25,583 nucleotides of DNA from Gammaproteobacteria bacterium (GCA_011330835.1 DRPO01000178.1:1-25583), one strand, 5' to 3'. Shown: positions 9,127 to 25,583, counted from the first letter of the stretch. The notes: generated by a model from the sequence alone, not told the origin. Program-made: numbers and translations.

Positions 9127-9170
9127 GACGTTCAGCCGGCGGGAGGAGACACATCCCGCGACTGAACGTC
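9127..9170. terminator. Intergenic stem-loop (attenuator or mRNA-stabilising hairpin) after the first gene of the leftward operon
   Basis: GACGTTCAG (9127-9135) / CTGAACGTC (9162-9170) perfect arms with inner GCGGGA/TCCCGC; no clear U-tract. Confidence 0.4.
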
Positions 9171-9214
9171 CCACCACGGTTGCTTCCCGGAGATCGGGAA
9201 AGCACCGGCGTCCG

Positions 9215-10042
9215 CTACTTGATATGGCAAGCCAGACAGACGTCGCTGTTGTCGTTGTCGATGCGTAGGAACTGCACCGGTTGCGAGGCGGTATTGTGCG
9301 GATCGTGACAGCTCGCGCACTCCACGGCGGGGCCGGCGGTAACGATGTTGCCGTCACCGGCATCACGCGTATACAGGATCATGTCGGTTTTCTGCCGATT
9401 CGCGGAACCCCCGATCGAGGTATTCACCCACCATTGTGGATTGCCGTTGATGCTGGCAAAGTCGGCGGGCTGGAAATCCGGGTCGCCCGTCGACGCGGTC
9501 TGTGGCGTGCAAGGGCCTGGCGTGGCACTCGCGCAGGCGCCGCCAGCGTACTCGATACTGATCGGATGATCGTTGCGCAGATCGGTACCGAGCATGGGTA
9601 CCGGGCTGCCCGTCATCTCGTTACCCGGCGTACCCGTCCCGAAAGAACCAAGCCCCGACCCTGGCGCATTGATGACCGCATCCATCGCCTGGGTGCCGTC
9701 ATGACAGGAGAGGCAGGCGATGGAAACCGAACCCACCGTGGCTTCCTTACCATCCAGCGTCGCGGTACCAAGATCCGAGTAGCGTTGATAACCGGCGCCA
9801 CCCAGGCCAGTCAGATTCTTGTTCCACAGGGGAGCGGCCGCCGATGTGTCCGATCCGTGAGGCGTATGACAGAAGACACACACCTCCGTGGTTCCACCCA
9901 GTGGGCTGTTACCGCTGATCTGGCTGCTGCCGCTGGCGCCAAGATTGTGCTTGCTGTTTGCGTCCCCAATCCCGGCCACGGCGGGGATGGCCGCGACCGC
10001 TCCCGCCACCACGGCCCAGGACATGCTGGTTAGTCTACTCAT
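9215..10042 (-). CDS. OmcE-like tetraheme cytochrome c (paralog A)
   Basis: GGGAGG RBS; signal peptide; SKHNL, CVFCHTPH, PLWN, CLSCHDG, LGTDLRNDHP, CASCHDPH, FLR, CLACH: 4 CXXCH plus 4 spare His. Confidence 0.9.
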   Translation of the reverse strand: MSRLTSMSWAVVAGAVAAIPAVAGIGDANSKHNLGASGSSQISGNSPLGGTTEVCVFCHTPHGSDTSAAAPLWNKNLTGLGGAGYQRYSDLGTATLDGKEATVGSVSIACLSCHDGTQAMDAVINAPGSGLGSFGTGTPGNEMTGSPVPMLGTDLRNDHPISIEYAGGACASATPGPCTPQTASTGDPDFQPADFASINGNPQWWVNTSIGGSANRQKTDMILYTRDAGDGNIVTAGPAVECASCHDPHNTASQPVQFLRIDNDNSDVCLACHIK

Positions 10043-10121
10043 TTAATTTCCTCCCGCCTTGCTATTTATTTAAGGCTTGTTGATCGTAGGCGACAGACAC
10101 ACGCCTGTCCCCAGCTACCCA

Positions 10122-10137
10122 AGCAATCCGCGTGCCA
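10122..10137 (-). promoter_or_regulatory. sigma54 -24/-12 promoter for the main leftward operon
   Basis: TGGCACGCGGATTGCT on the minus strand, exact TGGCAC-N5-TTGCW consensus, about 80 nt upstream of ATG 10042. Confidence 0.85.
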
Positions 10138-10239
10138 AACACGCCGATGCCCAAGCAATGGCGCTTCCCGCGCATTCCGACGCCTGATTTCTCATAAACG
10201 GGAAGGCTGTTTTTCCCGCTTTCGAGACTCGCCGCCTTT

Positions 10240-11067
10240 TCACTTGGCATGGCAACTGCTACAGATGTGGCTGCCGGCATTGTTCATGCGCAGAAAGCTC
10301 ACCGGCGTCGAGTCGGCGTTATGTGGGTCGTGGCAACTGGCGCATTCGACCGAGGGGCTGCGGTTTCCGCCCGCGCCGTTGCCGCTGCCCCGCGTATACA
10401 GAATCATGTCGCTCTTCTCGCGCAGCGCGGTGCCGCCCCGGGTATCGACCCACCACTGGGGCACACCGTTGATATTCGCGTAACTCGCCGGGTTGAAATC
10501 CGCGCCGGCCGGGCCGGGCGCGGTTGGGTCACAACCCCCCACGACTCCGTTGCAGGCGCCGCGCGCGTATTCGACATTGACCGGATGTCCGCGTAACCAG
10601 TCCGACGCTGCAAACCCCGAGCCTGGCACCCAGAAGCCAGGTCCGCTGCCCCCGGCATTGATGATCGCGTCCACCGCCTGCGTGCCGTCGTGACATGACA
10701 GGCAGGAGATGGAAACCGAGCCGACGACGCGTGACTTGCCGCCCAGCATCGCCGTGCCGAGGTCGGCGTAACGCTGATAGCCGTCGCCCGCGCTGGATGG
10801 CACCCACAGCGGGTCGGTCTCGCGATCCGCCACCCCACTGGGGGTATGGCAGAACACGCAAAGATCGGTTTCCACCACATCGGCGCCCGCGTCCGCGCTT
10901 CCGGAACGGGCCGAAAGATCGTGTTTGCTGCCGACAAAGCCGGCGCGCGCCTGTCCGGGCCGGAATGCAACGACCAGCAACAGCATCGAAAAGGCAAGGA
11001 CGACAATGCCAGCCGGCAACACGATGAACCTCGCCGAATACCCATATGCATACTTACACGTCACCAT
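10240..11067 (-). CDS. OmcE-like tetraheme cytochrome c (paralog B, one distal His replaced)
   Basis: SKHDL, CVFCHTPS, CLSCHDG, LRGHP, CASCHDPH, FLR, CSSCH; long segments closely similar to paralog A (YQRY.DLGTA.L.GK...GSVSI.CLSCHDGTQA.DA.IN; INGxPQWWV; K.DMILYTR). Confidence 0.9.
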   Translation of the reverse strand: MVTCKYAYGYSARFIVLPAGIVVLAFSMLLLVVAFRPGQARAGFVGSKHDLSARSGSADAGADVVETDLCVFCHTPSGVADRETDPLWVPSSAGDGYQRYADLGTAMLGGKSRVVGSVSISCLSCHDGTQAVDAIINAGGSGPGFWVPGSGFAASDWLRGHPVNVEYARGACNGVVGGCDPTAPGPAGADFNPASYANINGVPQWWVDTRGGTALREKSDMILYTRGSGNGAGGNRSPSVECASCHDPHNADSTPVSFLRMNNAGSHICSSCHAK

Positions 11068-11208
11068 GCTTATCTATTCCATCCTCGTGTACCGCGTGCC
11101 CGGGGAGCGATCATTCGCGGCAGACCGTGCCAAGGCGGTCGAGCGGGAATCGGACCCGACAATCGCCCGGAGATAGGCGCGCGATACGCCAGGCTTCAGC
11201 AATATGCC

Positions 11209-11224
11209 AGCAACCCTCGTGCCA
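11209..11224 (-). promoter_or_regulatory. sigma54 -24/-12 promoter for tetraheme paralog B
   Basis: TGGCACGAGGGTTGCT on the minus strand, exact consensus. Confidence 0.85.
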
Positions 11225-11269
11225 AGATTCGAAATTCGACGACTTCCGTTACGCCGCATGCGATTCGGC

Positions 11270-11285
11270 TGGCGTGAAAATTGCT
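11270..11285 (+). promoter_or_regulatory. sigma54 -24/-12 promoter for NHL-2
   Basis: TGGCGTGAAAATTGCT (GG-N10-GC); unusually close to ATG 11300. Confidence 0.65.
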
Positions 11286-11299
11286 TGCACATTGGAGCA

Positions 11300-12376
11300 A
11301 TGACTATTCACCGTACATCGGGAACGCCTCCCGGGCGCCTCATCGCCGTCCTGTGCCTCGTTGTGCTGCTGTCGGCCTGCGCGGGTCCGGCGCGAAAACA
11401 AGCGAACGACTGGAGTGGACTGCGCTGGCCGCCGCCTCCCGAACAGGCCCGTTTTCGTTATGTCACCACACTGCGTAACCACAAGGACATCGAGCGAGGC
11501 AAAGAGGAAACCAGACTGCGCGATACCATCACCGGGGTTGCCGGCGCGCCGGTCCCGACGCCGTTGAAGGAGCCCTACGCGATCGTCGCGAATGGAGGCC
11601 GCTTGTATGTATCGGACATCCGCATCAACCGTATCCATGTCTTCGACATCCCACGTGGACGCTACTTCACGATGGGCTATCGATTCGAGGGGAAACTGGC
11701 AAAACCACTCGGCATGGCCTTGCGTGAGGAGGCACTCTACGTCGCCGATGTAAAACAACGTCGGGTCGTGGTCTACGACCCGCTGGGGCTTTACCAGCGC
11801 AGCATCGGTGACGAGAAGGATCTGACACGGCCGACCGATGTCGCGCTCAGCCCGGATGGCCAGCGTATCTATGTCGTGGATACCGGCGGGGTGGAAAGCC
11901 AGGACCATCGCATCGTGGTCTTCGACCACGAGGGGAAGAAACTTTTCACCATCGGCAAACGCGGGTCCGCGCCGGGGGAATTCAATCTGCCCGTCGCGCT
12001 GACCATCGTCGCCGACGGCACGTTGTATGTCCTCGATGCCGGCAACTTCCGCGTCCAGGCGCTGGATCCGGATGGCAAGCCGTTGCGCGCATGGGGAACG
12101 GTCGGCAACAACCCGGGACAGTTCGCGCGCCCCAAGGGCATCGCCCACGACCGCGACGGCAATATCTACGTGGTGGATGCCGCCTTCGGCAACGTGCAGG
12201 TCTTCGACCCGGAGGGCCGGCTGCTGCTGCCGATGGGGAAACGTGACGAGGCCGACGATCGCCCCGGGCGTTACGGTCTGCTCACGGCTGTCGACCTGGA
12301 CGAGAAGGGCTATCTGTATCTGCTCGACAGGATGTTCAAGAAGATCGATGTCATACAGAAGCTCGAATCCCGTTAA
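11300..12376 (+). CDS. NHL-repeat beta-propeller lipoprotein (NHL-2)
   Basis: GGAG before ATG 11300; lipobox LSAC; WPPPPEQARFRY; NHL blades (PTDVALSPDG.RIYVVD, GEFNLP, GQFARPKGIA.D). Confidence 0.92.
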   Translation: MTIHRTSGTPPGRLIAVLCLVVLLSACAGPARKQANDWSGLRWPPPPEQARFRYVTTLRNHKDIERGKEETRLRDTITGVAGAPVPTPLKEPYAIVANGGRLYVSDIRINRIHVFDIPRGRYFTMGYRFEGKLAKPLGMALREEALYVADVKQRRVVVYDPLGLYQRSIGDEKDLTRPTDVALSPDGQRIYVVDTGGVESQDHRIVVFDHEGKKLFTIGKRGSAPGEFNLPVALTIVADGTLYVLDAGNFRVQALDPDGKPLRAWGTVGNNPGQFARPKGIAHDRDGNIYVVDAAFGNVQVFDPEGRLLLPMGKRDEADDRPGRYGLLTAVDLDEKGYLYLLDRMFKKIDVIQKLESR

Positions 12377-12563
12377 CAACGCCCGCGTTTCGTGGTGAAA
12401 ATTCCCGGATTCAAGAGAAATCTTCCCGGGCGTGGGAATTTCATAACGCTGAACGCGGGCCGTCGACTTGAGATCGCCCCTAGCCCGCTCTGTGCCACAA
12501 AGCCCACGGGTTGCCCGTGCGTCACGCCGCCGCACACACCCTTCCCGCTCGACACAAGAATAA

Positions 12564-12579
12564 TGGCCCGAATTTTGCT
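12564..12579 (+). promoter_or_regulatory. sigma54 -24/-12 promoter for the pentaheme paralog C
   Basis: TGGCCCGAATTTTGCT (GG-N10-GC, TTGCT) about 95 nt upstream of ATG 12673. Confidence 0.8.
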
Positions 12580-12672
12580 TGCCTGATCAGGTAGGGCGAA
12601 ACTTGTTAATAATTCAAAACAGTTTTCCGTAGGACTCCTTGAATACAGTTCGAATAAAAGAAGGAAACCGCT

Positions 12673-13590
12673 ATGGCATCGAGAGCGAGATCAAAAATAC
12701 TTACGACCGTGGTTTGCCTGTCCGCCGGCAGCGCGGCCCTTGCGGGCGGCGACGTACCCACGGAATTCACCAACCAGGGCGGTATCAAGAACACGCGCCA
12801 CAACCTGACGCAGAACGTACCGGGCATCAACAGCAGCCTGATGGATCTGCAACGCAACAACTATGGCGAGATCTGCGTGTACTGCCATACGCCCCACGGG
12901 GCCAATACCACGCCCGGCATGCCACTGTGGAACCGCCAGACACCCACCGGTCCCTACACCACCTATGACCAATTGAATACCACCACCCTGACGCAGACGG
13001 TAACCAGCCCGGGCGCGAATTCCCTGACCTGTCTCTCATGCCACGATGGTTCACTCGCCATCGACGCCATCATGAACATGCCCGGGCCCGGTCGCTACAG
13101 CGCCAACCCGGACATCTCCTTCCTGAATCAATGGGCCAATCCCGGCGGATCGACCTCCAGCCACGCCCACATGGGAGACCCCACCGGGGCCAACCCGAGT
13201 ACCGGCTGCATGGTCTGCCACAACGATGGCGGCTCGGGCAACTCCTTCCCGGACGCCACCGATTTCAGCGTATTCCTGATCGGCACGGACCTGAGAAACG
13301 ACCATCCGGTCGGCGTCAGCTTCCCCTCCAGCGGCGCCGCCGCGGGTTTCAATACACCTACCCCGGTATCGAGCAGCCTGGCGGTGTTCGATACCAATGG
13401 CAACAACCGCGCCAATACCAACGAGATCCGCGTGTATGACACCGGCGAAGGCTTCGAGGTGGAATGCGCCAGTTGTCATGATCCGCATGGCGTGCCCTCG
13501 GCCGGCCCCGGCAGCACCCACTACCCGACCTTTTTGAGGGTGGACAACAGCAATGGCAGCGCGGTCTGCCTTACCTGCCATATCAAGTAG
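12673..13590 (+). CDS. OmcE-like cytochrome c with an extra heme (pentaheme, paralog C)
   Basis: AAGGA RBS; signal peptide; IKNTRHNL, CVYCHTPH, PLWNR, CLSCHDG, inserted HAHM...CMVCH, IGTDLRNDHP, CASCHDPH, FLR, CLTCH. Confidence 0.92.
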   Translation: MASRARSKILTTVVCLSAGSAALAGGDVPTEFTNQGGIKNTRHNLTQNVPGINSSLMDLQRNNYGEICVYCHTPHGANTTPGMPLWNRQTPTGPYTTYDQLNTTTLTQTVTSPGANSLTCLSCHDGSLAIDAIMNMPGPGRYSANPDISFLNQWANPGGSTSSHAHMGDPTGANPSTGCMVCHNDGGSGNSFPDATDFSVFLIGTDLRNDHPVGVSFPSSGAAAGFNTPTPVSSSLAVFDTNGNNRANTNEIRVYDTGEGFEVECASCHDPHGVPSAGPGSTHYPTFLRVDNSNGSAVCLTCHIK

Positions 13591-13705
13591 ATCCCCCGCG
13601 CGTCCTCCTCGATCCAGCGTGGCCCTCCTCGGGCCGCGCCGCCTCCAGGCGCGGACCGATACCGCGTTTGCGCCCGACCAATCCATTCATTCCTTCCCCG
13701 GGGAT

Positions 13706-13721
13706 TGGCATGTTCGTTGCT
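13706..13721 (+). promoter_or_regulatory. sigma54 -24/-12 promoter upstream of ECF sigma 1
   Basis: TGGCATGTTCGTTGCT (GG-N10-GC) about 210 nt upstream of ATG 13929. Confidence 0.7.
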
Positions 13722-13801
13722 TCCTTCATTCCATGCGCGCGACGAATGAACATTGCGCGCTATCGCCCCGGTTGGCTGCGGCGGGAATAAAACCGGTCGA
13801 T

Positions 13802-13829
13802 GGAATATCCGCGAGCCCCTCGTGTTTAT
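13802..13829 (+). promoter_or_regulatory. Putative autoregulatory ECF promoter GGAATA-N14-GTGTTTAT
   Basis: Same motif and spacer occur upstream of the second ECF gene (21395..21422, minus strand). Confidence 0.75.
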
Positions 13830-13928
13830 TATCTATATGAAGATAAGACGAGACATTCCATCCGACGAAACACGACAGAGAAAACTACAAAAATATGTTT
13901 CCTGGAAAACTGGAAAAGAGCTCGAACC

Positions 13929-14441
13929 ATGGATGATTTCGCTGAAAGACTGGTGGAGGAAATTCCGCACCTGCGCCGCTATGCAAGATCGCTCACCTGC
14001 GACGCGGAGCGCGGCGACGACCTGGTGCAGGACTGCCTGCACCGCGCCTGGAGCCGAATGCATCTGTGGCAGCAGGATGGCAACACGCGGGCCTGGCTGT
14101 TCACCATCATGCACAACATATTCGTCAATGATATTCGCAAGGCACAACGCCTCGCTCCCACGGAGCCGCTGGAGCTGCGTCAGCATGCCACCGTCGGCCA
14201 GTCGGATGGCGATCGGGCCATGTTGATGCGCGATCTCGAACAGGCGCTTGCCCAACTGCGGGCCGATCACCGCGAGGTGCTGATCCTGGTCGGCGTGGAG
14301 CAGATGAGCTATCAGGAGGTTGCCGATCTGCTCGACATCCCGCTAGGCACCGTCATGTCGCGTCTGCATCGCGCGCGTTCCAAGATGAGGGACTGGATGA
14401 ATGGGGAACAACCCAGGGTCACGCTGAGGCCGGTAACGTGA
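13929..14441 (+). CDS. ECF RNA polymerase sigma factor 1 (PrtI-like)
   Basis: Sigma region 2 (IPHLRRYARSL...DDLVQD...AWLFTIMHN) and region 4 (REVLILV...MSYQEVADLLDIPLGTVMSRLHRAR); start placed at ATG 13929. Confidence 0.95.
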   Translation: MDDFAERLVEEIPHLRRYARSLTCDAERGDDLVQDCLHRAWSRMHLWQQDGNTRAWLFTIMHNIFVNDIRKAQRLAPTEPLELRQHATVGQSDGDRAMLMRDLEQALAQLRADHREVLILVGVEQMSYQEVADLLDIPLGTVMSRLHRARSKMRDWMNGEQPRVTLRPVT

Positions 14442-15223
14442 GCAGCGAACCCTACTCCGCCGAGACACTGCATGCCTATGTCGATGGCGAATTGCAGGGC
14501 AAGGAGCATGCCCGCGTGCGGGCATGGCTACGCTGTCACCCGGATGCACAATCCACGGTCGATGATTTTCGCCGACTCAACGGAATGCTGCGCGAACTTT
14601 ACGCGCCGCTGCTCCAAGAGCCCGTGCCACGCGAGCTGTTGTCACCCGCCGCGCAAAGGCCGGGAAGCCGAAACTGGCGGAACGGCATCGCGGCCATCGC
14701 CGCTTCCGTCATGCTGCTTTCCATTGGCACGCTGATGGGCTGGCAACTGGCGCGCATGCAGACCGCCGCGCCCCAGGGCGGCGGCGAAGATATTGAAGCG
14801 GTAGCGCAGGAAGCCGCGATGGCCTACACCATCTACGCACCCGAGGTGCTGCATCCGGTGGAGGTATCCGGGGACAGGAGGAAGCGGCTTACCACCTGGC
14901 TGGGGAAACGCCTCGGCACGCATCTGATCGCGCCAAGCCTGTCGAAGCACGGCTATCACCTCCTTGGCGGCCGCCTGCTCTCCTCCGAAGACGGCCCCGG
15001 CGCGCTGTTGATGTACGAGAACGCGCAAGGTGGTCGCCTGGTGCTGTACACCTGTCACAACGACAGGGAAAGTTTGAAGTCGACACTCAGATTCTCCCGC
15101 GAACGGAATATCGCTGTCTATTACTGGACGCATGGCGGACTGTGGCACGCGCTGGCCGGCGAAACCGACCATGCGGTGCTGAAAGAGCTGGCGCGCTCGG
15201 CGCACCGCCAGATGAGCAGTTGA
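14438..15223 (+). CDS. Transmembrane anti-sigma factor 1 (PrtR/COG5662-like)
   Basis: GTG overlapping the sigma stop; LHAYVDGEL N-terminus, one TM helix, periplasmic domain YAPEVLHPVEV...WLGKRL...GYHLLGGRLL...GPGALLMYEN. Confidence 0.92.
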   Translation: MSSEPYSAETLHAYVDGELQGKEHARVRAWLRCHPDAQSTVDDFRRLNGMLRELYAPLLQEPVPRELLSPAAQRPGSRNWRNGIAAIAASVMLLSIGTLMGWQLARMQTAAPQGGGEDIEAVAQEAAMAYTIYAPEVLHPVEVSGDRRKRLTTWLGKRLGTHLIAPSLSKHGYHLLGGRLLSSEDGPGALLMYENAQGGRLVLYTCHNDRESLKSTLRFSRERNIAVYYWTHGGLWHALAGETDHAVLKELARSAHRQMSS

Positions 15224-15420
15224 CCCCTGACGAAATCCGACAGACTACCCGCCCCGGAAATGCGTTTCCCGACAGGCATCCGTGGCTCGAAGACGGTGAT
15301 TCATCCGAATCCCGCGGGACACCGTGCATGCGTTCCGTCGCTCGCCTGACGCACTCGCTATCGACTTCCCGTAATCGGGAAACCCGCCGCGAGATTTTCC
15401 TGAATTCGAGAGTCGCTCGC

Positions 15421-16437
15421 TCACCGACCCCGGTTTCGATCAGGCGCGCCGGGCTGCAACACGCGCTCGATATAGCTCACCAGGGATTCTATCTGCTGTT
15501 GCGTCAGCACCGCCTTCCAGGCCGGCATGGAGGTGCCGTCGACGCCCTCGGCTATCGCCCGGGCGACCTCCCCGGGCGTCCGCCGCCGCAGGAGTTCCGG
15601 GTCGCTCAGATCCCGGGGGTGGGGTTGCAAGAAACTGCCTATCCAGTTTTTACCCGTGCCATCGGCGCCATGGCAGAAAGCGCAATTCGCCTGGAACAGC
15701 GCCTCTCCTTCGCGTTCCGACGGTGTCAGGCCCTCCACGCGAGGCACTTGATCGTGCCGCGCGAAGGCGCTGGCGCCGCTCACGGCATCCGCCGGAAGCA
15801 GGAAATCCCCGGTGGCGAAACCGGTGCGTGGATAAGAGACCGCGTCGGCCTCCCAGATCGCGCCTTCCTGGATCACCTTGCCGCGATCGTGGCAACTGAT
15901 GCAGGCACGCATATACAGCTCGCGGCCCCGACGCTGCGCTGGCGTCAGTTCTTCCAGCGCCTCATCCAATGGAAGCGCTCCAGTGGCAAAAGGAAACGCC
16001 GCGCGATAGCGCTGGTGATCGGGCCAGCCGTTCTCCGGCGTGTGATAGGCACTGTTCGGCGCCTTGCGCCGCATGAATTCGCGCCGCACGAAATCCACCA
16101 CGCGCTCCATCTCCATCGCTGTCAGCAGGGCGCGAAAGCTTCTCATCGCCGTGCCCGGCCTTCCTTCCCGCAAGGTATCCAGCATCTGTTCGCGGGAAAG
16201 CGAATCGGGGGCCAGCGCGGTGAAATCTCTCGGCGGGGGATCGAGATAACTGGATGCCAGCGTTTTTGCATCGCCGGAATAGCCATGACAGTAGTAACAC
16301 CGAAAGTTGTAGATTCGCCGGCCTTCCTCGTGACGGCTTGTCGTCCCCTCGTCGGCGATAGCCGGAAGCGGTACGAGGAAGACGAATATCAGGGTCGCCA
16401 GGAGCATGCTGATTCCCGGTTGGCACGGTTCTTTCAT
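15421..16437 (-). CDS. Triheme cytochrome c: two class I (His/Met) domains plus a central CXXCH
   Basis: Signal peptide; CYYCH...PPPRDFT...GRPGTAM; CISCH; CAFCH...PHPRDL...GTSMPAW. Start at ATG 16437 or 16407; the 854-aa ORF-track version is an antisense extension over NHL-3. Confidence 0.88.
   Translation of the reverse strand: MKEPCQPGISMLLATLIFVFLVPLPAIADEGTTSRHEEGRRIYNFRCYYCHGYSGDAKTLASSYLDPPPRDFTALAPDSLSREQMLDTLREGRPGTAMRSFRALLTAMEMERVVDFVRREFMRRKAPNSAYHTPENGWPDHQRYRAAFPFATGALPLDEALEELTPAQRRGRELYMRACISCHDRGKVIQEGAIWEADAVSYPRTGFATGDFLLPADAVSGASAFARHDQVPRVEGLTPSEREGEALFQANCAFCHGADGTGKNWIGSFLQPHPRDLSDPELLRRRTPGEVARAIAEGVDGTSMPAWKAVLTQQQIESLVSYIERVLQPGAPDRNRGR
16421..16436 (+). promoter_or_regulatory. 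Degenerate sigma54-like site upstream of NHL-3
   Basis: TGGCACGGTTCTTTCA: perfect -24 box but TC instead of GC at -12. Confidence 0.3.
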
Positions 16438-16475
16438 GGTTGCTCTGGATATCGGTAAGAAACAAACATGGTACG

Positions 16476-16491
16476 AGCAATATTCAGACCA
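16476..16491 (-). promoter_or_regulatory. sigma54 -24/-12 promoter for the triheme class I cytochrome
   Basis: TGGTCTGAATATTGCT on the minus strand (GG-N10-GC, TTGCT; TGGT instead of TGGC). Confidence 0.55.
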
Positions 16492-16542
16492 GAAAAACCC
16501 CGTCCCCGGCGCGGACGGCATGTCATCGACAGGAGCATCTTG

Positions 16543-17634
16543 ATGAAGCCTATCGCATTGCTGCTGCTGGCCGCGGTCAGCCTGCTGTTTCATGGCTGCG
16601 GCACCGGCCCCGAGCAACGCGCGGCAAGAAAGGTCTTGGCCTTTCCGCCGCCGCCCGCCGAGGCTCGCTTCTACTATGAACGAACGCTCGTCGGCACGGG
16701 CGACCCGATAAAGAAGAGCACGGAAACCAGTCTGCGGGAGAAGCTCACCGGAGAGTCCGGTTATCGCGGCAGGGGCTTCGCCAAGCCCTTCGACGTGGCG
16801 GTATACAAGGGCCGCGTCTATCTGTCGGATACCGTGGCGCGCAAAGTGGTGGTACTGGACTTTCCCGGCGAACGATCCTTCGATCTCGGCAAGGATGATG
16901 ACGATGGCCAGTTGATGAAACCCATGGGCATCGCCATCGATGGCAACGGTAACGCCTACGTCGCCGACAATACGCTGAAAACGGTCAAGGTCTACGACCG
17001 TGACGGCCGTTACCTGCGTTCCATTGGCAACCCTGGCATCTGGGACCGCCCGGTGGGCCTGGATGTCAACCCCGAAGGCAGTATCGTCTACGTCGTCGAT
17101 ATCGGCGGCGTGCGCAGCGAACGCCACCGCGTGGTGATGATAGACGCGCTCAGCGGAAAACTGATTCGCGCCATCGGTATCCGCGGCACCGAGCCCGGCC
17201 AGTTCAACCTGCCGAGGGATGTCGCGCTGGGCACCGACGGCCTGTTGTACATCACCGACGGCGGAAATTTCCGCGTCCAGGTGATGACGCAACAGGGCGA
17301 GTTCGTGCGCAAGTGGGGTACACCGGGGCGACGGCCCGGCCAGTTCACGCGGGCGAAGGGTATCGCCATCGGCCCCGAAGGGCATATCTACGTGGTGGAT
17401 GCCGCGTTTGGCAACACCCAGATATTCACCGCCGACGGACAACTGCTGATGCACATCGGCGGCCGCTCCACCGCCAACGCGCCAGGGAAATACATGCTGC
17501 CGGCCGGGGTGGACGTGGACGAGGACGGGCGCATCTACATGGTCGGCCAGTTCTTCCGCAAGGTGGATGTCTATCGCCCGGCGCGACTCGCCAAGGATCA
17601 GGGCTATCTGGCCGGCAATGTGAAAAAGGGTTGA
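16543..17634 (+). CDS. NHL-repeat beta-propeller lipoprotein (NHL-3)
   Basis: AGGAG RBS before ATG 16543; signal peptide ending FHGC; FPPPPAEARFYY; NHL blades (KPMGIAID, GQFNLPRDVA, GQFTRAKGIA). Confidence 0.92.
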   Translation: MKPIALLLLAAVSLLFHGCGTGPEQRAARKVLAFPPPPAEARFYYERTLVGTGDPIKKSTETSLREKLTGESGYRGRGFAKPFDVAVYKGRVYLSDTVARKVVVLDFPGERSFDLGKDDDDGQLMKPMGIAIDGNGNAYVADNTLKTVKVYDRDGRYLRSIGNPGIWDRPVGLDVNPEGSIVYVVDIGGVRSERHRVVMIDALSGKLIRAIGIRGTEPGQFNLPRDVALGTDGLLYITDGGNFRVQVMTQQGEFVRKWGTPGRRPGQFTRAKGIAIGPEGHIYVVDAAFGNTQIFTADGQLLMHIGGRSTANAPGKYMLPAGVDVDEDGRIYMVGQFFRKVDVYRPARLAKDQGYLAGNVKKG

Positions 17635-18426
17635 ATGTCGGCCATGCTTCCGCGCATACCCATCCTCCTGATAGCGCTGCTCGGCCTGGCCGCTATCCCC
17701 GGTTGCGGCACCCAGCGCGACGATATCCAGAAAACTGCGCGACCGTCGCCGACCCGGCAGGCGGAACCGAGGGGCACCCCCGGCTCGGCCATGCCGGTGG
17801 TGATTCAGGCCGCCATCCCGCCGCGAGAGCACGACGAGGCGTCCACGTCGCCCTCCCCGCCAGAGCCGGAGTCCGCGCCAACGGAGGCGATCGAGCCGAC
17901 CTCGACGCCGGCGCCAGCCACGCCGACGGCACCGACCGCGAAAACACCGCCGGCGGTGGCGATCAAACGCTCGCCCACGCGCCACTTCAAGGCCGACCGC
18001 AGCGACCTGGACTCACGCGGTCCGGCCTACCGGATACTCCAGAATCCACGCGAAGCGATGCGCGATTTCCCGGTCGACGACTTCGGCATCGTCGACTGGG
18101 TCCAGGCATTGAACGACGAGCGGATCGCGCCACGCGCCTCCATTGTCGGCGGGCGCAAGATGCTCATCAAGAGAGAGGCCGTGATCATGAAGGACACCCG
18201 GCAAATGCCCTGGGTGCGATTCCCGCACCTGCAACACACGCAATGGCTCGCCTGCGGCAACTGCCATCCCAAGCCGTTCAAGGAGAAGCAGAACGACATC
18301 AGCATGGACAGCATCATGCGTGGCAGGCACTGCGGCCTGTGTCACGGCAAGGTCGCGTTCCCCATCCTGCAATGCGAGCGCTGCCACAATGTCACCCACC
18401 CCGGATCGCCGAAGCGATGGTGGTGA
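17635..18426 (+). CDS. Lipoprotein c7-type triheme cytochrome (subtype II) on a Pro/Thr/Ala-rich tether
   Basis: ATG abuts the NHL-3 stop; signal ending IPGC; PEPESAPTEAIEPTSTPAPATPTAPT linker; DWVQAL...FPHLQHTQWLA-CGNCH, CGLCH, CERCH. Confidence 0.9.
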   Translation: MSAMLPRIPILLIALLGLAAIPGCGTQRDDIQKTARPSPTRQAEPRGTPGSAMPVVIQAAIPPREHDEASTSPSPPEPESAPTEAIEPTSTPAPATPTAPTAKTPPAVAIKRSPTRHFKADRSDLDSRGPAYRILQNPREAMRDFPVDDFGIVDWVQALNDERIAPRASIVGGRKMLIKREAVIMKDTRQMPWVRFPHLQHTQWLACGNCHPKPFKEKQNDISMDSIMRGRHCGLCHGKVAFPILQCERCHNVTHPGSPKRWW

Positions 18427-18524
18427 ACAGACATGGCGCCGTGCTTCCAATACCGAATTCACGCGACGCGCGAAACCGTCGCCCCATGCCTCGGACAGCC
18501 TGAAAAACGGCAAGGAGTTTCACA

Positions 18525-19220
18525 TTGATCAAGTACCTGATAACGCTCACCCCCCTGCTGTTCGCCGTCGCCGCGTGTAGCGATAACGGCAATGCACCAG
18601 AGCAACAGGCCGCCAAGCAACAAGTCGGCAAGACGGAAACGCAACCGCGCGCGACAAGCGTGGCCGACGGCAAAGACCCGCACGCCGGACTGAACATGCG
18701 CCTGACCCAGGCACCCACCGGCGCCGGTTCGCCACGCTTGCGCGGCGGCGGCACGGGGCGGGTCAAGCAAGTGCTGCAAGCCGGCAACTACACCTACGTG
18801 GAGGTGGACACCGGCAAGGCGAGCCTGTGGATGGCCTCGAATCCCAGCAAGGTGAAGACCGGCGACAAGATCGCCTGGCGCGACGGCGCCATCATGCACA
18901 ACTTCCACAGCAAGGCACTGAAGCGTGATTTCAAGCAGATCATGTTCGTATCCGAATTCGTCTCGCCCAATCTGCTACCCAAGCCGAAAGGCGGCGTGGT
19001 GCTTTCGCGGCAGGACGCCGCCGGCTATACCTACCTGGAGATCGATACCGGGAATGGCCGGGAATGGGTCGCGCTACCGACGACCAATGTCAATGTCGGC
19101 GAGAAGGTACATTGGCTGGGAGGATCCCGCATGCACGACTTTCACAGCAGTTCGCTGAACCGGGATTTCGACAGTATCTGGTTCATCAACCGACTGGAAA
19201 CCAGCACCATCCAATTCTGA
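18525..19220 (+). CDS. NrfJ-like lipoprotein with two tandem beta-rich (OB-fold-like) repeats
   Basis: AAGGAG RBS before TTG 18525; lipobox VAAC; two copies of YTY.E.DTG...W.A.....V..G.K..W..G..MH.FHS..L.RDF..I.F; family resemblance recalled, not searched. Confidence 0.65.
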   Translation: MIKYLITLTPLLFAVAACSDNGNAPEQQAAKQQVGKTETQPRATSVADGKDPHAGLNMRLTQAPTGAGSPRLRGGGTGRVKQVLQAGNYTYVEVDTGKASLWMASNPSKVKTGDKIAWRDGAIMHNFHSKALKRDFKQIMFVSEFVSPNLLPKPKGGVVLSRQDAAGYTYLEIDTGNGREWVALPTTNVNVGEKVHWLGGSRMHDFHSSSLNRDFDSIWFINRLETSTIQF

Positions 19221-19255
19221 ACACGCTGTGAATCCTCTTTGAAAGGTCCAGAAAA

Positions 19256-20017
19256 ATGAACAAGGCTATAGACTTTCATCCCAGGCACCTGACCTTCTTC
19301 GTCGGCCTGGCGCTGCTCAACGCATCCACCTCGGCCAGCGAGGCGCACGAGGGCCTGGACGCCCGGGAGATCTACCACGAGTATTGCTCGGTGTGTCATG
19401 GCGACAACGGCGACGGACGCTCCCACGCGCAGAACAGCTTCGACCCACCGCCGCGCAATTTCACCGCGCCGGAAGCGGCCGCGCAACTGGATCGCGAGCG
19501 CATGCTGTTCTCGGTGACCTACGGGCGACCGGATACCGCGATGCCCGGTTGGGGAACCCGGCTGAGCAAGGATGAGATCGCCTCGGTAGTGGATTTCGTG
19601 CGTTCGACCTTCATGAAGATCGATGCGTCGCGACAATCCGCCGACGCGGAAGCGAAAGGCGTCGACCGCTTCGCCACCGGCTACATGGACCAAGCGATGC
19701 CCTATGGCCTGCATGGCGACAAGGCATCCGGGCAGGCATACTTTCGCATGAACTGCGTCGTCTGCCACGGCGTCAACGGCGACGGCAAGGGCCCGCGCGC
19801 CTATTTCATACTGCCCAAGCCCAGGGACTACCGCCACCCCGCCGCGCGCGCCAAGCTGAACCGACCGACGCTCTTCGAGGCGATCGCCAAGGGCAGCAAC
19901 GGTACCGAGATGCCGGCCTGGGAAAAGGTACTCGATAAACAGGAGATCGCGAACATCGCGGAATACGTCTTCGATACCTTCATCAAGCCGGAACCAACCG
20001 AGGCAGCCAAGCGCTGA
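19256..20017 (+). CDS. Diheme cytochrome c with two class I domains
   Basis: Signal peptide; CSVCH...PPPRNFT...GRPDTAMPGW; CVVCH...PKPRDY...GTEMPAW. Confidence 0.92.
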   Translation: MNKAIDFHPRHLTFFVGLALLNASTSASEAHEGLDAREIYHEYCSVCHGDNGDGRSHAQNSFDPPPRNFTAPEAAAQLDRERMLFSVTYGRPDTAMPGWGTRLSKDEIASVVDFVRSTFMKIDASRQSADAEAKGVDRFATGYMDQAMPYGLHGDKASGQAYFRMNCVVCHGVNGDGKGPRAYFILPKPRDYRHPAARAKLNRPTLFEAIAKGSNGTEMPAWEKVLDKQEIANIAEYVFDTFIKPEPTEAAKR

Positions 20018-20054
20018 ATTGCCTGCCGGCTCCGCTTCGGCGCCGAGACGGGAT

Positions 20055-20858
20055 TCACCAATTCAGCTGTTCGTAGACCTCGTGCGCGGCTTTCGATATG
20101 ACAGGTCGGTCGACCGTGCCGGCGAGCACGTAACCAAGATCGCCCTCCACCCAGTAGAACGCCTGTATGCCGTTACGCTTGGCATACCGAAAAGCGGTAT
20201 CCCCGCCGGTGTTCTTCTGATAGACAAACAGGGTCAGGCGGTTCCCTTTGTCGTTCTGGTACATGAACAGGGCCGCCGGCCCCTCCGCCGATGTCACCAG
20301 CCGCCCTCCCAGCAAGCGGTAGCCGAGCTGACTCAACCGGGGCGCGCGCACCTTGGATTTGAGACGCTTCGATAGCCAGGCGACCAGGTGTTTCTCTTCG
20401 TCCGCGCCGACCTCGACCGGGTGGCGCACCTCGGGCGTATAGACCGCATGGGCGAGAAAGGCGAGATCGAGGGTATTCTCATCGGATGCCGGCAACGCGG
20501 CGACCGGAGCCCTGGCTTGTATTCCACCCCGCGCATACCAACCGAGCAGTCCGCCGACGCTCATGGCCGCGACCACGGCCGCCGCCTTCCACAAGCGGTG
20601 TCGTGGCGGCCCGGCGCGATGTCCGCCGATATTCCCGGCGGCGGCTTCCATCAACTCGCGGGGAATGGGTTCATCGAGCACCGGGTCGTAGAGGGCATGC
20701 AGCGCTTCGTTGAGTTCACGGCAATCCCGAACCTTCTTCGCGACATCGGGATCAGTCTGCAACAACGCTTCGATCTCGCGACGATGATCCTCATCGAGCT
20801 GACCGTCCACGTAGGCATGCAGATCCACCTCGGTAATCGCGGAATCCGATGATTTCAT
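20055..20858 (-). CDS. Transmembrane anti-sigma factor 2 (PrtR/COG5662-like)
   Basis: ATGA overlap with the sigma 2 stop; LHAYVDGQL, TM helix, YTPEVRHPVEV...WLSKRL...GYRLLGGRLV...GPAALFMYQN. Confidence 0.92.
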   Translation of the reverse strand: MKSSDSAITEVDLHAYVDGQLDEDHRREIEALLQTDPDVAKKVRDCRELNEALHALYDPVLDEPIPRELMEAAAGNIGGHRAGPPRHRLWKAAAVVAAMSVGGLLGWYARGGIQARAPVAALPASDENTLDLAFLAHAVYTPEVRHPVEVGADEEKHLVAWLSKRLKSKVRAPRLSQLGYRLLGGRLVTSAEGPAALFMYQNDKGNRLTLFVYQKNTGGDTAFRYAKRNGIQAFYWVEGDLGYVLAGTVDRPVISKAAHEVYEQLNW

Positions 20859-21361
20859 TTAACCCCCCTCAGGCTGGCCGATGCATCACCCCGCATCACC
20901 TCGCGCAACTTGATCCTGGCGCGGGACAGGCGGGACATCACCGTGCCCGCCGGTACATCGAGCACCTTGGCCGTTTCCTCGTAACTCAGACCTTCCAGCC
21001 CGATCAAAAGCACCACCAGCCGCTGACCGTCCGGGAATTCGTCGAGTCGTCGTTGCAAATCCCGCAGCACCAGGCGTGAGTATTGATTCGGCGCCTGCTC
21101 TCGTTCGCTGACGGTATCCAGGGACACGAGCGATGGCGCGCGGCTGTAGCGTCTCGCGGCATTCGCGTGAATATTATGCATGATGGTGAACAGCCATGGA
21201 CGGATGTCGTCGTCCCCGCGATACAGGTGTTTGCGCGACCAGGCACGTTCCAGGCAGTCCTGCACCAGTTCGTCCGCCTGCTCCTTGTCCTTCATCAGCG
21301 CACGCGCGTAACGCCTCAGGCGAGGGATGTTCTCGATCAACAGCGATTCAAAATCACCCAT
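20855..21361 (-). CDS. ECF RNA polymerase sigma factor 2 (PrtI-like)
   Basis: IPRLRRYARAL...DELVQDCLERAWSR...PWLFTIMHN; LSYEETAKVLDVPAGTVMSRLSRAR; start placed at ATG 21361. Confidence 0.95.
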   Translation of the reverse strand: MGDFESLLIENIPRLRRYARALMKDKEQADELVQDCLERAWSRKHLYRGDDDIRPWLFTIMHNIHANAARRYSRAPSLVSLDTVSEREQAPNQYSRLVLRDLQRRLDEFPDGQRLVVLLIGLEGLSYEETAKVLDVPAGTVMSRLSRARIKLREVMRGDASASLRGVK

Positions 21362-21394
21362 GGGGCAGTTTCCCGGATACACCAGTCCTGCTGT

Positions 21395-21422
21395 ATAAAC
21401 ACCGCGCGCCCGGGTTTATTCC
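21395..21422 (-). promoter_or_regulatory. Putative autoregulatory ECF promoter GGAATA-N14-GTGTTTAT
   Basis: Minus strand GGAATA aacccgggcgcgcg GTGTTTAT, 33 nt upstream of ATG 21361; matches 13802..13829. Confidence 0.75.
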
Positions 21423-21552
21423 ATTTCCACCCGGCTGTCTTTTCCCCAGCGCATCCGCGCGCGACAAGGGCTATACTTTGCCGGCAAGGGACGCGCTTGT
21501 GGCCAGTCGAGCGTCACCGATCTCGACCCGCGCCACGCCGGCCCGGGGCCGG

Positions 21553-21719
21553 CTAGGAGTCTGTCGGGTTTGACCGATCGTAGCGAGGGAAAGCTATTTT
21601 GAGTCCGTTTTTTCGTTCACTTGAGGCGAATAGTCATTCTATTTAACGAAAGTGAACGGAAAAACGGGCCAAAAGGGCTTTTCCGCAGTAGATCAGCGTT
21701 AAACCCGACAGACTCCTAG
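21553..21719. mobile_element. MITE-like palindromic element, copy 1 (167 bp)
   Basis: Perfect 19-bp terminal inverted repeats CTAGGAGTCTGTCGGGTTT (21553-21571 / 21701-21719) with CTAG at both ends (possible target-site duplication); internal 18-bp arms 21605-21622 / 21650-21667 (1 mismatch); AT-richer than flanks; no ORF. Confidence 0.85.
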
Positions 21720-21756
21720 TCTCCCTGTTGTTCCGCGCTCAACTTTTTGGTTCGCT

Positions 21757-23103
21757 ATGAAACACACCTTCCGACTCACACGCCAGTTCGCCTTGTTGAG
21801 CTTTGTCACCATCCTGTTCATCGGGCTGGTCTCGGCCTATACGCTGTCGAGACTGCTGACCAACGAGATCCTCACCCGGGACGCCATCGTCAGTGGTGAT
21901 TTCGTCAACAGCATCGTGACCGCGGACCGCAGCTGGCGTTATTTCAACGATGTGGACAATCCGGCGGGCAAGGCCGTTCTGCGCGAGTTCTACGATCACG
22001 TCACCCACCTGCCGGACGCGCTCAGGTTCAATGTCTACGGCAAGGACCAGCGGGTCATCTGGTCGAGCGACAACGAGTTGATCGGAAAAAAATTCGACGA
22101 TAACGACGAACTGGAGGAGGCCTTGGAAGGCAGGCTGGTCTTCGAGTCCGGGACCATAGGTGAAAGAGTAAAGAAAGAGCACGTGGACCTGGGCTCCGAC
22201 CTGGTCGGCATGCATTTCATCGAGACCTACATCCCGATCTGGAATCCGGATCACGACGATGTAGTCGCGGTGGTCGAGCTCTACAAGCGCCCTCTCAGCC
22301 TGCATAAAGCGATAGTCAAGGGGGAAAGCATCATATGGATCGGCTCCCTGCTCGGAGGCATGCTGTTGTTCGTCGCCCTCTATTGGATCGTGCGGCGCGC
22401 CGATCTGGTGATGGCGTCGCAACAACAGCGGCTCATCGAGGCCGAAAGTCTTTCGATGATCGGCGAGACGGCCTCGGCGGTGGCGCACTCGATGCGCAAT
22501 CCCCTGGCATCCATCAGAGCTTGTGCCGAGCTCACTCTGACAGACGACCTGGAAGGCGCCAAGGAGTCCGCGCGCGACATCATCAACGAGGCAGACCGGC
22601 TGGATCGCTGGGCGCGGGAACTGTTACAGTTCTCGGCGACCCACCAGGATGAACTGGAGACGATCGACATCGATGCATTGATAGGCAAAACACTCGATGC
22701 GCATCGTGAAGACTTGGCGCGCGCATCCATCGAACTGAAGCTGTATCTGTCCGGCATCCATCCGATGCTTCGCGCCAACGAAGCTCCGTTGGCCCAGGTA
22801 GTGGAGAACCTGGTCGTCAACGCGATCGAAGCGATCGGCCACGATGGCACCCTGACGGTGGCTACCGCCGTGGAGCACAAACCACCGTTCGTCCGCATCA
22901 CCATCACGGATACCGGACCGGGTCTCTCCGACGAGATCAAGGACCGCCTGTTCCGCCCTTTCGCCACGACCAAGCCGAGTGGCACCGGCCTGGGCTTGGC
23001 GCTGGCCCGGCGCCTGGTGGAACACTACGGTGGCACGCTCGATTTACACAGTGATCCCGGCCAGGGCGTGACGGCGACGATACGCCTGCCGGCGGTGGAT
23101 TGA
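21757..23103 (+). CDS. Membrane sensor histidine kinase
   Basis: Two TM helices around a periplasmic domain; H-box AHSMRNPLASI; N-box NLVVNAIEA; DTGPGL, LFRPFATTK, GTGLGL. Confidence 0.96.
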   Translation: MKHTFRLTRQFALLSFVTILFIGLVSAYTLSRLLTNEILTRDAIVSGDFVNSIVTADRSWRYFNDVDNPAGKAVLREFYDHVTHLPDALRFNVYGKDQRVIWSSDNELIGKKFDDNDELEEALEGRLVFESGTIGERVKKEHVDLGSDLVGMHFIETYIPIWNPDHDDVVAVVELYKRPLSLHKAIVKGESIIWIGSLLGGMLLFVALYWIVRRADLVMASQQQRLIEAESLSMIGETASAVAHSMRNPLASIRACAELTLTDDLEGAKESARDIINEADRLDRWARELLQFSATHQDELETIDIDALIGKTLDAHREDLARASIELKLYLSGIHPMLRANEAPLAQVVENLVVNAIEAIGHDGTLTVATAVEHKPPFVRITITDTGPGLSDEIKDRLFRPFATTKPSGTGLGLALARRLVEHYGGTLDLHSDPGQGVTATIRLPAVD

Positions 23104-23107
23104 GCGT

Positions 23108-24508
23108 ATGGGTCACGGCATACTCATCGTCGAGGACGAGGCCATCCTGGCGAAGACCGTCGCCAGGTATCTGCGCAAGCATGGATTCGACGTGCGCACC
23201 GCGAGCGACGGTCACGCCGGCATCGAGGACGTGAAGAGTTATCAACCCGACGCCGTCCTGCTCGACTTCAACCTTCCCGGCGGCATGAACGGGTTGGAGG
23301 TACTGAAAAGGATTCAGGCGATCGATTCCTCCATCAAGATCGTCATGATCACCGGACAGGGAAACACCCGACTGGCGGTGGATGCCATGAAAGCCGGAGC
23401 CTACGACTACCTGAGCAAGCCGCTGGCACTGAGCGAACTCAAGCTGTTGCTCGAAAGGGCGATCGGGCAACAACGTACCGAGGGACAACTCTCTTATTTC
23501 CACGGTAGGGACGCCTCGCGCAGCGATATCGACAGGATTGTCGGAGAGAGCCACGCCATGCTCGACCTGAAGCAGCGAATCGCCCGGATCATCGACGCCG
23601 GCAGGCGCCTGAGCGACGGACCGCTGCCGGCGGTACTCATCAGCGGTGAAACGGGTACGGGAAAAGAACTCGTGGCAAGGGCGTTGCACTACGGCGGACC
23701 GCGCGCCAAACAGGCGTTCGTCGAACTGAACGCGGCGGCGATGCCGCAGCAGCTGGTGGAATCGGAACTCTTCGGCCACGAAAAAGGCGCCTTCACCGAT
23801 GCCAGGGAACGCAAGCTGGGTCTGGTCGAGGCCGCGAACGGCGGCACCTTGTTTCTCGACGAGGTCGGAGAACTCGATCTGGCCATCCAGGCCAAGCTGC
23901 TCAAGCTGCTGGAGGATCGCAAGGTCAGACGCCTCGGCAGCCTGCGCGACACCCGGACCGATATTCAGATCGTGACCGCCACCAATCGCTCGCTTCAGGA
24001 AATGGTCCACGACGGCGGGTTCCGCGAGGATCTCCTGTTCCGTCTCAATACCCTCACCATCCACATCCCGCCACTGCGAGACAGGCTGGAAGACGTTCCA
24101 CTGCTCGCCGGACATTTTCTCGAACAGATGACACGCAAGTATGCGAAACCCGACCTGCATCTCGCGGAGAACACCCTTGGCGCGCTGACGACCTACCACT
24201 GGCCCGGCAATATTCGCGAGCTGCGCAACCGCATCGAGCAGGCGGTGCTGCTGTGCGAGGGCTCGGAAATCGGCGTGGCATGCCTGAACCTTCCAACGAC
24301 GACCCCGCATAGCAACGCCACGCACAGACCCGGCGCGGATCATGCCGCCGGCGCGCCATCCACCTTGCCAGACGTGGAGAAGGAAATGATCGAGCAGACC
24401 TTGAAAGCCGTTGGAGGCAACGTATCCAAGGCGGCGAGACAGCTGGGCATCACCCGGGATCGGCTGCGATATCGATTGAAGAAGTACGGCTTGACCGATC
24501 AGCCGTAG
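23108..24508 (+). CDS. sigma54-dependent response regulator (NtrC family: REC-AAA+-Fis HTH)
   Basis: REC (IVEDE, LLDFNLP, KP); Walker A GETGTGKE; [15 protein letters not shown]; LFLDEVGEL; [10 protein letters not shown]; WPGNIREL; [14 protein letters not shown]. Confidence 0.97.
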
Positions 24509-24767
24509 GCTTCGCCCCTTTTACACGCCCGCCTTCGCCGCCCATCCAACAGATACCTACCCCCGCCACCACCATTTACTGACGCCCTCGCCCGGCGACA
24601 GGCGGGGAACCACACCCAACTGTGGGTGAACAAATGGGTGCTGTATACCCAATTCTTGGAAGTATTCCGTCTCCCTCGTCGGCAATGGCACGGATCAGGC
24701 GCGTCGAATACAGACAATAGCTCACGAAACCGGCAGGATAGATACCACGCGCGGAAATAACCCACGC

Positions 24768-24783
24768 TGGCACGGGTTTTGCT
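24768..24783 (+). promoter_or_regulatory. sigma54 -24/-12 promoter for the single-domain response regulator
   Basis: TGGCACGGGTTTTGCT, exact consensus, 37 nt upstream of GTG 24821. Confidence 0.85.
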
Positions 24784-24820: not shown

Positions 24821-25243
24821 GTGAGTATTCTCATCGTCGACGACAACGCCACGCTGCTGAGCAAGATCGTGCGCAGCCTGACACGGGCGAACCGCTCGGC
24901 GCGCGGCGCTTCCAGCCTCGCCCAGGCGCGCCAGTTGATGATGGAGAAACAACCCAGTGTACTCTGCCTCGATCTGCAGCTCGGGGACGGTAACGGGTTC
25001 GATCTACTGCGCGAGATCCGTCAAAGTGGCAGCAAGCTGCCCGTCGTCGTGATCAGCGGTTATCGCTCGGTGGAGAGCACACGGCGCGCTGAGCAGCTCG
25101 GCGCCGCGGTTTTTCTCACCAAACCCTTCGCGCTCTCCGAACTGCACGAGTGGGTAGTCAAGCTGCTGGACGCGCGGCCGAATGACAGGGGCGCGCAGGC
25201 CTCGGAACCCAACGATCCAGACACTGCATCAAACCGGAACTGA
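24821..25243 (+). CDS. Single-domain (CheY-like) response regulator
   Basis: GGAG RBS; IVDDN, phospho-Asp in LCLDLQL, VISG, FLTKPF; no output domain. Confidence 0.9.
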   Translation: MSILIVDDNATLLSKIVRSLTRANRSARGASSLAQARQLMMEKQPSVLCLDLQLGDGNGFDLLREIRQSGSKLPVVVISGYRSVESTRRAEQLGAAVFLTKPFALSELHEWVVKLLDARPNDRGAQASEPNDPDTASNRN

Positions 25244-25439: not shown

Positions 25440-25583
25440 CTAGGAGCCTGTCGGGTTTAACGCTGATCTACTGCGGAAAAGCCCTTTTGGCCCGTTTTCC
25501 CGTTCACTTTCGTTAAATAGAATGACTATTCGCCTCAAGTGAACGAAAAAACGGACTCAAAATGGCTTTCCCTCGCTACGATC
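25440..25583. mobile_element. MITE-like element, copy 2 (inverted relative to copy 1, truncated by the window edge)
   Basis: 144 bp matching the reverse complement of 21576..21719 with 3 mismatches found by eye; starts CTAGGAGCCTGTCGGGTTT. Confidence 0.9.

Follow-up and report, generated by a model that had tools for sequence, protein, structure and literature searches.

Cytochrome nanowires have been studied nearly exclusively in Geobacter, and the triggers of their production are poorly understood. The omcE clusters comprise two multiheme cytochromes, two beta-propeller lipoproteins, OmcE itself, and a large barrel protein (PMC13712944), and OmcE homologs were noted in Pseudomonadota by the same 2026 paper, which does not mention sigma-54. 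No report of RpoN (sigma-54) control of omcE clusters was found in the literature searched. Sigma-54 regulons that span several operons and have NtrC-type activators dedicated to them, such as the FleQ/FlrC flagellar, PilR-pilA, and NifA-nif systems, have palindromic enhancers about 80 to 170 bp upstream of their promoters and an activator and kinase encoded beside the targets. Here, a stretch of 25,583 nt from a gammaproteobacterium (GCA_011330835.1, DRPO01000178.1:1-25583), called the window at its full length, was analyzed. Judged from its genes, it is most of an OmcE-type cytochrome-nanowire gene cluster, and seven sigma-54 sites face its genes. An NtrC-type activator encoded on an adjoining contig, C164, is predicted to be a likelier switch for the OmcE genes than the two-component system encoded in the window.

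The window resembles the OmcE clusters of Geobacter and Desulfuromonas (7tfs, 9yuq, PMC13712944) in having a tetraheme OmcE homolog, NHL lipoproteins, a predicted large outer-membrane barrel, and small multiheme cytochromes, with ResB and CcsA heme-maturation genes adjoining. This proteobacterial version differs from them in having four OmcE-like paralogs, a peptidyl-prolyl isomerase (PPIase), two pairs of extracytoplasmic function (ECF) sigma and anti-sigma factors, and two sigma-54 activators. OmcE (PDB 7tfs) is matched by the cytA family profile at an E value of 4e-37, as is a second OmcE filament (9yuq) at 2e-36; compared with these filaments of known structure, the filament here is a prediction from genes. 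The regulatory design is an ordinary one, a sigma-54 regulon for a cell surface structure, and it shares with the regulons named above both the palindromic enhancers and the encoding of activator and kinase beside the targets. The predicted target differs from those of the named regulons in being a cytochrome filament apparatus; in addition, the locus is flanked by two different activators, and a recognizable enhancer is present only at the OmcE promoters, besides a tandem before the promoter at 24768.

Sigma-54 sites in the window and in related loci

The original prediction placed seven sigma-54 sites in the window, each correctly oriented before a gene, and took a locally encoded kinase and activator to be their master switch. 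A search for TGG-N8-TTGCT on both strands recovered all seven where they had been predicted, together with an eighth match:

10122..10137, minus strand: cytA site, TGGCACGCGGATTGCT, 18.0 bits, 79 nt upstream of the ATG at 10042
11209..11224, minus strand: cytB site, TGGCACGAGGGTTGCT, 17.6 bits, 141 nt upstream of the ATG at 11067
11270..11285, plus strand: doubtful sigma-54-like site of NHL2, TGGCGTGAAAATTGCT, 14.9 bits, 14 nt upstream of the ATG at 11300
12564..12579, plus strand: site of cytC (five hemes), TGGCCCGAATTTTGCT, 17.0 bits, 93 nt upstream of the ATG at 12673
13706..13721, plus strand: site of ECF sigma 1 and anti-sigma 1, TGGCATGTTCGTTGCT, 17.8 bits, 78 nt from the start codon, or 207 nt with a later start
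16476..16491, minus strand: weaker site of diheme1 (15421-16437), TGGTCTGAATATTGCT, 13.8 bits, 38 nt upstream of the ATG at 16437
24768..24783, plus strand: site of the CheY-like gene, the best in the genome, TGGCACGGGTTTTGCT, 19.8 bits, 37 nt before the start codon
7230..7245, plus strand: eighth pattern match, 10.5 bits, antisense within the barrel gene (6232-7962)

These eight matches compare with 0.69 expected, and none of 100 shuffles reached eight. The match at 7230(+) is probably due to chance, because it lies antisense inside a gene and scores low. The seven sites have GG at -24 and GC at -12, ten bases apart, and score 13.8 to 19.8 bits on a heuristic weight matrix whose frequencies were set after the published consensus; they also fit the RpoN consensus of Geobacter sulfurreducens, TTGGCACGGTTTTTGCT (PMC2725144). 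The sites at 10122(-), 11209(-), and 24768(+) are exact TGGCAC-N5-TTGCT sequences, as originally reported, and only six such sequences exist in the entire genome (3.05 Mb, 666 contigs). A matrix scan for enrichment over the genome, which had been proposed as a check, gave 12 sites of at least 17 bits, five of which lie within the 25.6-kb window, on a contig that constitutes 0.84% of the genome. The other top sites precede fliL-, cheW-, and cheA-like, rpoN, and porin-type genes (recognized from N-terminal sequences only), and since they form an ordinary RpoN regulon, they support the matrix. Contig C4 carries the genome's one copy of rpoN, and strong activator genes number about 12. An 18.3-bit sigma-54 site at C4:6835(+), 163 nt upstream of the rpoN start codon, hints at rpoN autoregulation.

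All seven sites are intergenic and each faces a gene, and six have plausible leaders, with 37 to 141 nt between the end of the site and the start codon (207 nt for ECF1 with the later start). The site at 11270 is treated as doubtful because its leader is only about 4 nt long, which leaves no space for a GGAG ribosome-binding site, compared with about 36 to 70 nt before homologous NHL genes. Its back-to-back arrangement with 11209(-) resembles the diheme-NHL promoter pairs of other loci. The sole site of the NHL3 operon is defective: at 16421-16436(+), 106 nt upstream of NHL3 and facing 16476(-), TGGCACGGTTCTTTCA joins a perfect -24 element to a -12 element without GC (TGGCAC-N5-TTTCA), and it may be a decayed NHL promoter. 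A 10-mer comparison of the seven upstream regions for a shared motif returned only noise and the homology of paralogous coding sequences. The flanks show no extended similarity, and the idea that the promoters were duplicated with the paralogs was therefore rejected.

The layout recurs in other genomes. The comparison set consisted of 80 homologous loci from named genomes, mostly of Gamma- and Betaproteobacteria, plus Magnetococcales and one Nitrospirae genome, and gene order is largely kept across it. A sigma-54 site of at least 13 bits lies in the 350 nt before a cluster gene in 48 of the 80 loci, and 41 of 136 cyt genes have such a site, versus a 2.6% expectation derived from the same loci. 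A locus can have as many as five promoters at recurring places, namely, between diheme(-) and NHL(+) genes and before cyt, PPIase, and triheme genes. No sigma-54 site precedes the PPIase gene in the window; several other genomes have one there. Because promoter positions recur across the set, the multipromoter sigma-54 layout seems to be widespread in this cluster type rather than peculiar to the window.

Two enhancer types and two activators

When 91 regions upstream of genes in the 80 loci were searched for dyads, TTCC-N8-GGAA appeared in 16 of them, versus 1.1 expected. The full motif, TTCCC-N6-GGGAA, often occurs in tandem, with copies 21 to 24 bp apart, at 76 to 250 bp upstream of the -24 element; it is present upstream of 27 of 37 cyt promoters, versus 3% of controls, and only before cyt promoters. 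Three pairs were found in the window:

10186..10231, no strand: cytA tandem enhancer, copies at 10186 (16.9 bits) and 10210 (11.0 bits), 24 bp apart, about 50 to 95 bp upstream of the TGG
12399..12441, no strand: cytC tandem enhancer, copies at 12420 (16.2 bits) and 12399 (10.3 bits), 21 bp apart, 140 to 165 bp upstream of the TGG
15363..15415, no strand: orphan palindrome pair, copies at 15363 (23.7 bits, the best in the genome) and 15394 (11.5 bits)

The orphan pair is located between the 3' ends of the convergent anti-sigma 1 and diheme1 genes, with no sigma-54 site in range, and could be a rearrangement relic, a distant enhancer, or something else. A lone TTCCC-type palindrome of 14.7 bits, without a T-run, occupies 9182-9203, 12 nt past the cytA stop codon. 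No enhancer was recognized before cytB, NHL2, ECF1, or diheme1 by searches for both enhancer types and for a motif shared by these four promoters. In the dyad search, no palindrome emerged for the NHL, diheme2, and triheme promoter classes, and only a few low-count dyads emerged for seven PPIase promoters. A TGGT-N2-ACCA dyad enriched upstream of cyt promoters was discarded because it belongs to the conserved final coding stretch of the NHL gene that precedes them. Of 63 TTCCC-type matches in the genome, 5 are given as a plain count, because an unrelated family of palindromic repeats confounds the genome-wide enrichment of this enhancer. A dispersed palindromic repeat of the form GTATTCCTGGGCGCGGGAAGTA occurs on many contigs (C655, C324, C306, C400, C563, and others) and gives chance matches to the enhancer matrix.

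The activator that accompanies the TTCCC enhancer is encoded outside the window. The ends of contig C164 and of the window's contig overlap (C164:1-325 equals C178:325-1 at 98.8% identity, with both contig ends reached), and the cytD frame crosses the join; because of this end-to-end 325-nt overlap and the shared frame, C164 is taken to continue the window leftward. The joined cytD encodes a long multiheme protein with at least 13 CXXCH motifs in all. On C164, the rest of cytD is followed by genes for ResB, CcsA, a TPR protein, a thioredoxin, a PAS kinase, and an activator (8465-9826), with a sigma-54 site at 9957. This activator, which is of the NtrC type, has a GAFTGA loop, and is paired with the PAS kinase, lies about 8.5 to 9.8 kb past the left end of the window. 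A kinase-activator pair is found within 10 kb of the cluster at five other loci (L027, L032, L060, L070, and L093); all five activators have the GAFTGA loop, and their best match in this genome, at 50 to 53% identity, is on C164 and not in the window. Orthologs of the C164 activator also lie 16 and 21 kb downstream in L015 and L033, respectively.

Co-occurrence was assessed in 55 cluster genomes, 35 with an ortholog of the C164 activator and 20 without one. A sigma-54 site is present in the cluster in 31 of the 35 genomes with the activator and in 2 of the 20 without it (Fisher test, 8e-9), and a TTCCC enhancer is present before a cyt gene in 28 of 35 versus 0 of 20 (Fisher test, 2e-9), the compared genomes being related to each other, so that both P values overstate the evidence. 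Both states were seen among Chromatiales and among Burkholderiales loci.

The two-component system of the window, its enhancer, and the gene that follows are arranged as follows:

21757..23103, plus strand: histidine kinase with HisKA and HATPase_c domains
23108..24508, plus strand: NtrC-type response regulator and sigma-54 activator of the GAFTDA subfamily, with receiver, Sigma54_activat, AAA lid, and HTH_8 domains
24603..24651, no strand: GAFTDA-type enhancer, tandem GGG-N7/8/9-CCC, with CGGGGAACCACACCCA at 24603 and TGGGTGCTGTATACCCA at 24635, 133 to 165 bp upstream of the -24 element
24821..25243, plus strand: stand-alone CheY-like receiver with a Response_reg domain

The kinase and the activator with a GAFTDA loop had been described in the original prediction, and both were found by domain search (for the activator, E values of 1.1e-29 for Response_reg, 1.7e-60 for Sigma54_activat, and 3.1e-17 for HTH_8) and by reading the loop. 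The sigma-54 contact loop is GAFTDA, the family consensus being GAFTGA. Of the 11 activator loops that a motif search found in the genome, ten read G[AS][FY]TGA, and only this one does not end in TGA. Since GAFTDA or GAYTDA is kept in 116 of the 120 sequences listed (the query and homologs of about 50 to 65% identity), the loop, read from these sequences, marks a conserved subfamily and not a defect. GAFTDA is among the loop variants expected to keep activator function in work on Desulfovibrio (PMC4641369). The same Gly-to-Asp change in the contact loop occurs in DVU2106 of Desulfovibrio vulgaris, listed as a working sigma-54 regulator (PMC4641369), and in VfmH of Dickeya, whose contact with sigma-54 is not established (PMC10714721); the likeness of both to the 23108 activator lies in the loop only.

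A class-wide search gave two orthologs of the GAFTDA activator in 400 genomes, too few for footprinting, and the ortholog loci were gathered otherwise; a metagenome scan with the activator alignment, which used generic patterns, returned mostly unrelated activators and a single ortholog (L099). In the ortholog loci, a kinase with 37 to 61% identity to the 21757 kinase is always located upstream, a sigma-54 site often lies 130 to 250 bp downstream of the activator gene (L094, L096, L097, L180, L182, and L184), and the downstream genes vary. ABC transporter (ATP-binding cassette) and porin genes matching those downstream genes are missing from the window. An ECF sigma and anti-sigma pair lies near the ortholog in L095 (Thiocystis) and L098, and L095 also has a cytochrome c. 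Between the activator gene and the downstream promoter, most ortholog loci carry tandem palindromes, (T/C)GGGnnAWWTnnCCC(A/G), 20 to 24 bp apart and 100 to 165 bp upstream of the -24 element. This GGG-N7/8-CCC footprint is kept in L094, L096, L097, L182, L184, and L095, and no palindrome is listed in L180. In the window, such a tandem stands only upstream of the 24768 promoter. The CheY-like gene behind that promoter has 60 to 61% identity only to the first 104 to 128 or so residues of the regulators of 486 to 511 amino acids that follow the orthologous activators.

Gene complement of the window

Genes were called from third-position G+C content and Pfam matches, with the following result:

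9215..10042, minus strand: cytA, an OmcE-like tetraheme cytochrome with four CXXCH motifs
10042 down to 1, minus strand: run of cytA, PPIase, a 577-amino-acid signal-peptide protein, a triheme and a tetraheme cytochrome, two unknown proteins, a triheme cytochrome, NHL1, and cytD
Middle block: cytB (minus strand), then NHL2, cytC, and ECF sigma 1 with anti-sigma 1 (plus strand)
Next block: the diheme cytochrome diheme1 (minus strand); NHL3, a c7-like cytochrome, a lipoprotein, and a second diheme cytochrome (plus strand)
Right block: anti-sigma 2 and ECF sigma 2 (minus strand); kinase and activator (plus strand); CheY-like receiver (plus strand)

The gene cytA is the first of the cytA-PPIase-barrel-multiheme-NHL1-cytD run. 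Four CXXCH motifs are also present in cytB and in the window part of cytD, and five are present in cytC. The 577-amino-acid protein, a barrel by prediction, has homologs in 19 loci. Three NHL proteins are encoded in the window, and NHL2 and NHL3 have lipoprotein signals. A 144-nt inverted repeat (21576-21719 and 25440-25583, 97.9% identity) flanks the kinase, activator, and CheY-like genes, and the contig terminates within its right-hand copy.

Control of the cluster

The explanation that we consider best for the locus as a whole, with moderate confidence, assigns the two activators to different promoters. The transcription units of the cluster would start from RpoN promoters. The PAS-kinase/NtrC-type pair of C164, with its GAFTGA loop, would activate cytA and cytC through their tandem TTCCC-N6-GGGAA enhancers, and this pair sits behind the cytD continuation and the cytochrome-maturation genes. 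The GAFTDA activator would use the tandem GGG-N7/8-CCC palindromes to act on the CheY-like gene's promoter at 24768 and would form, together with the two ECF sigma/anti-sigma pairs, an accessory sensory module. Two activators thus flank the window, and the local one is probably accessory. Promoter activity throughout, and which protein acts at which site, are predicted from sequence. For positions 9000 to 14000, the sequencing runs listed were DNA runs labelled hydrothermal vent metagenome, with no RNA run among them. The cluster-wide sigma-54 regulon that had originally been proposed is supported by its enrichment and by the recurrence of its positions elsewhere, whereas the assignment of the 21757/23108 pair as its master switch is not supported.

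That assignment, with the local kinase and GAFTDA activator as the single switch of all seven promoters, draws on the position of the pair next to the cluster, the complete set of NtrC-type domains in the activator, the listing of its loop among tolerated variants (PMC4641369), and the enrichment of its subfamily in cluster-bearing genomes. It is nevertheless distinctly improbable: the conserved GAFTDA enhancer footprint stands only before 24768, and cytA and cytC carry a different enhancer; no GAFTDA-type activator is present in at least nine genomes whose sigma-54 OmcE promoters are preceded by exact enhancer matches; OmcE-cluster genes are absent from the 10 kb around the orthologs in L094 and L095; and the C164 type follows both promoters and enhancer far better than the local one. 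Layered control, in which the C164 pair serves the OmcE genes and the local pair serves the genome-specific extra units cytB, NHL2, ECF1, and diheme1, is unlikely. The local pair would then work from weak or single sites or from solution, possibly via the CheY-like protein and the ECF sigmas. In its favor, the extra units are found in the region that separates the core cluster from the local pair, the ECF1 site is specific to this genome (no sigma-54 site was found before the ECF homologs in L095, L098, L016, and L017), and a single GGG-N7-CCC palindrome lies 109 bp upstream of the cytB site and another 126 bp upstream of that of NHL2. However, those palindromes are within chance, as about one match per 300 bp is expected at this G+C content by our own estimate, they are not in tandem, and no motif common to the four promoters was found. 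Finally, the sites might be chance matches or inert relics, transcription of the genes being driven by sigma-70 or ECF promoters. In favor of this, autoregulation is usual for ECF sigma genes, and the sites at 16476 and 11270 are the weaker ones, with almost no leader at 11270. Against this stand the shuffles, none of which matched the observed count, the five of the 12 top genome sites that fall here, and positions that recur in dozens of distant genomes and covary with activator and enhancer, so that this alternative is hardly credible.

Several observations weigh against the division between the C164 pair and an accessory local activator. GAFTDA-type activators occur in 11 of 50 cluster-bearing genomes versus 2 of 400 in the class-wide sample, and the activator borders on the cluster here and, judging by coordinates, also in L054, and in L096 some 8.7 kb separate it from cluster genes; because of this enrichment and location, a functional tie of the GAFTDA activator to the cluster is likely. 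The two enhancers are alike in geometry (CCC-N6-GGG within half-site arrays), and cross-recognition of the TTCCC-type enhancer by the local activator is possible. The enhancer matrix was derived from the same loci that were later counted, the relatedness of the genomes bears on the co-occurrence as stated above, and the cytB, NHL2, ECF1, and diheme1 promoters are without a recognized enhancer. In addition, the cluster (by its OmcE-like gene) was not found in the 20 nearest relatives searched, nor did the 40 nearest yield a close ortholog of the local activator, three genomes of the same genus being included in each set. The locus looks accessory, horizontally acquired, or mis-binned. With a bin contamination of 5.5%, the contig could be mis-binned, and the rpoN and activator counts would then possibly be those of another organism.

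A broader reading, possible but put forward only tentatively, is that OmcE-type clusters of Gamma- and Betaproteobacteria are a co-inherited regulatory unit, made up of a dedicated PAS-kinase/NtrC activator, RpoN promoters before nearly all units, and a tandem TTCCC-N6-GGGAA enhancer before the filament-subunit gene. Lineages without the activator would have lost all three together, and here a second, GAFTDA system and two ECF pairs would be layered on top, giving one costly extracellular structure several sensory inputs. For this window, the regulator of interest moves from the 23108 activator to that of C164. If the assignment to the C164 pair is true, OmcE-like clusters in many sulfur-, iron-, and nitrogen-cycling Proteobacteria would share one simple and predictable switch, consisting of RpoN, one PAS-kinase/activator pair, and a defined 16-bp enhancer. 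Such a switch would offer a direct handle for inducing these clusters in cultures or heterologous hosts, along with a sequence signature from which tight regulation of a cluster could be predicted.

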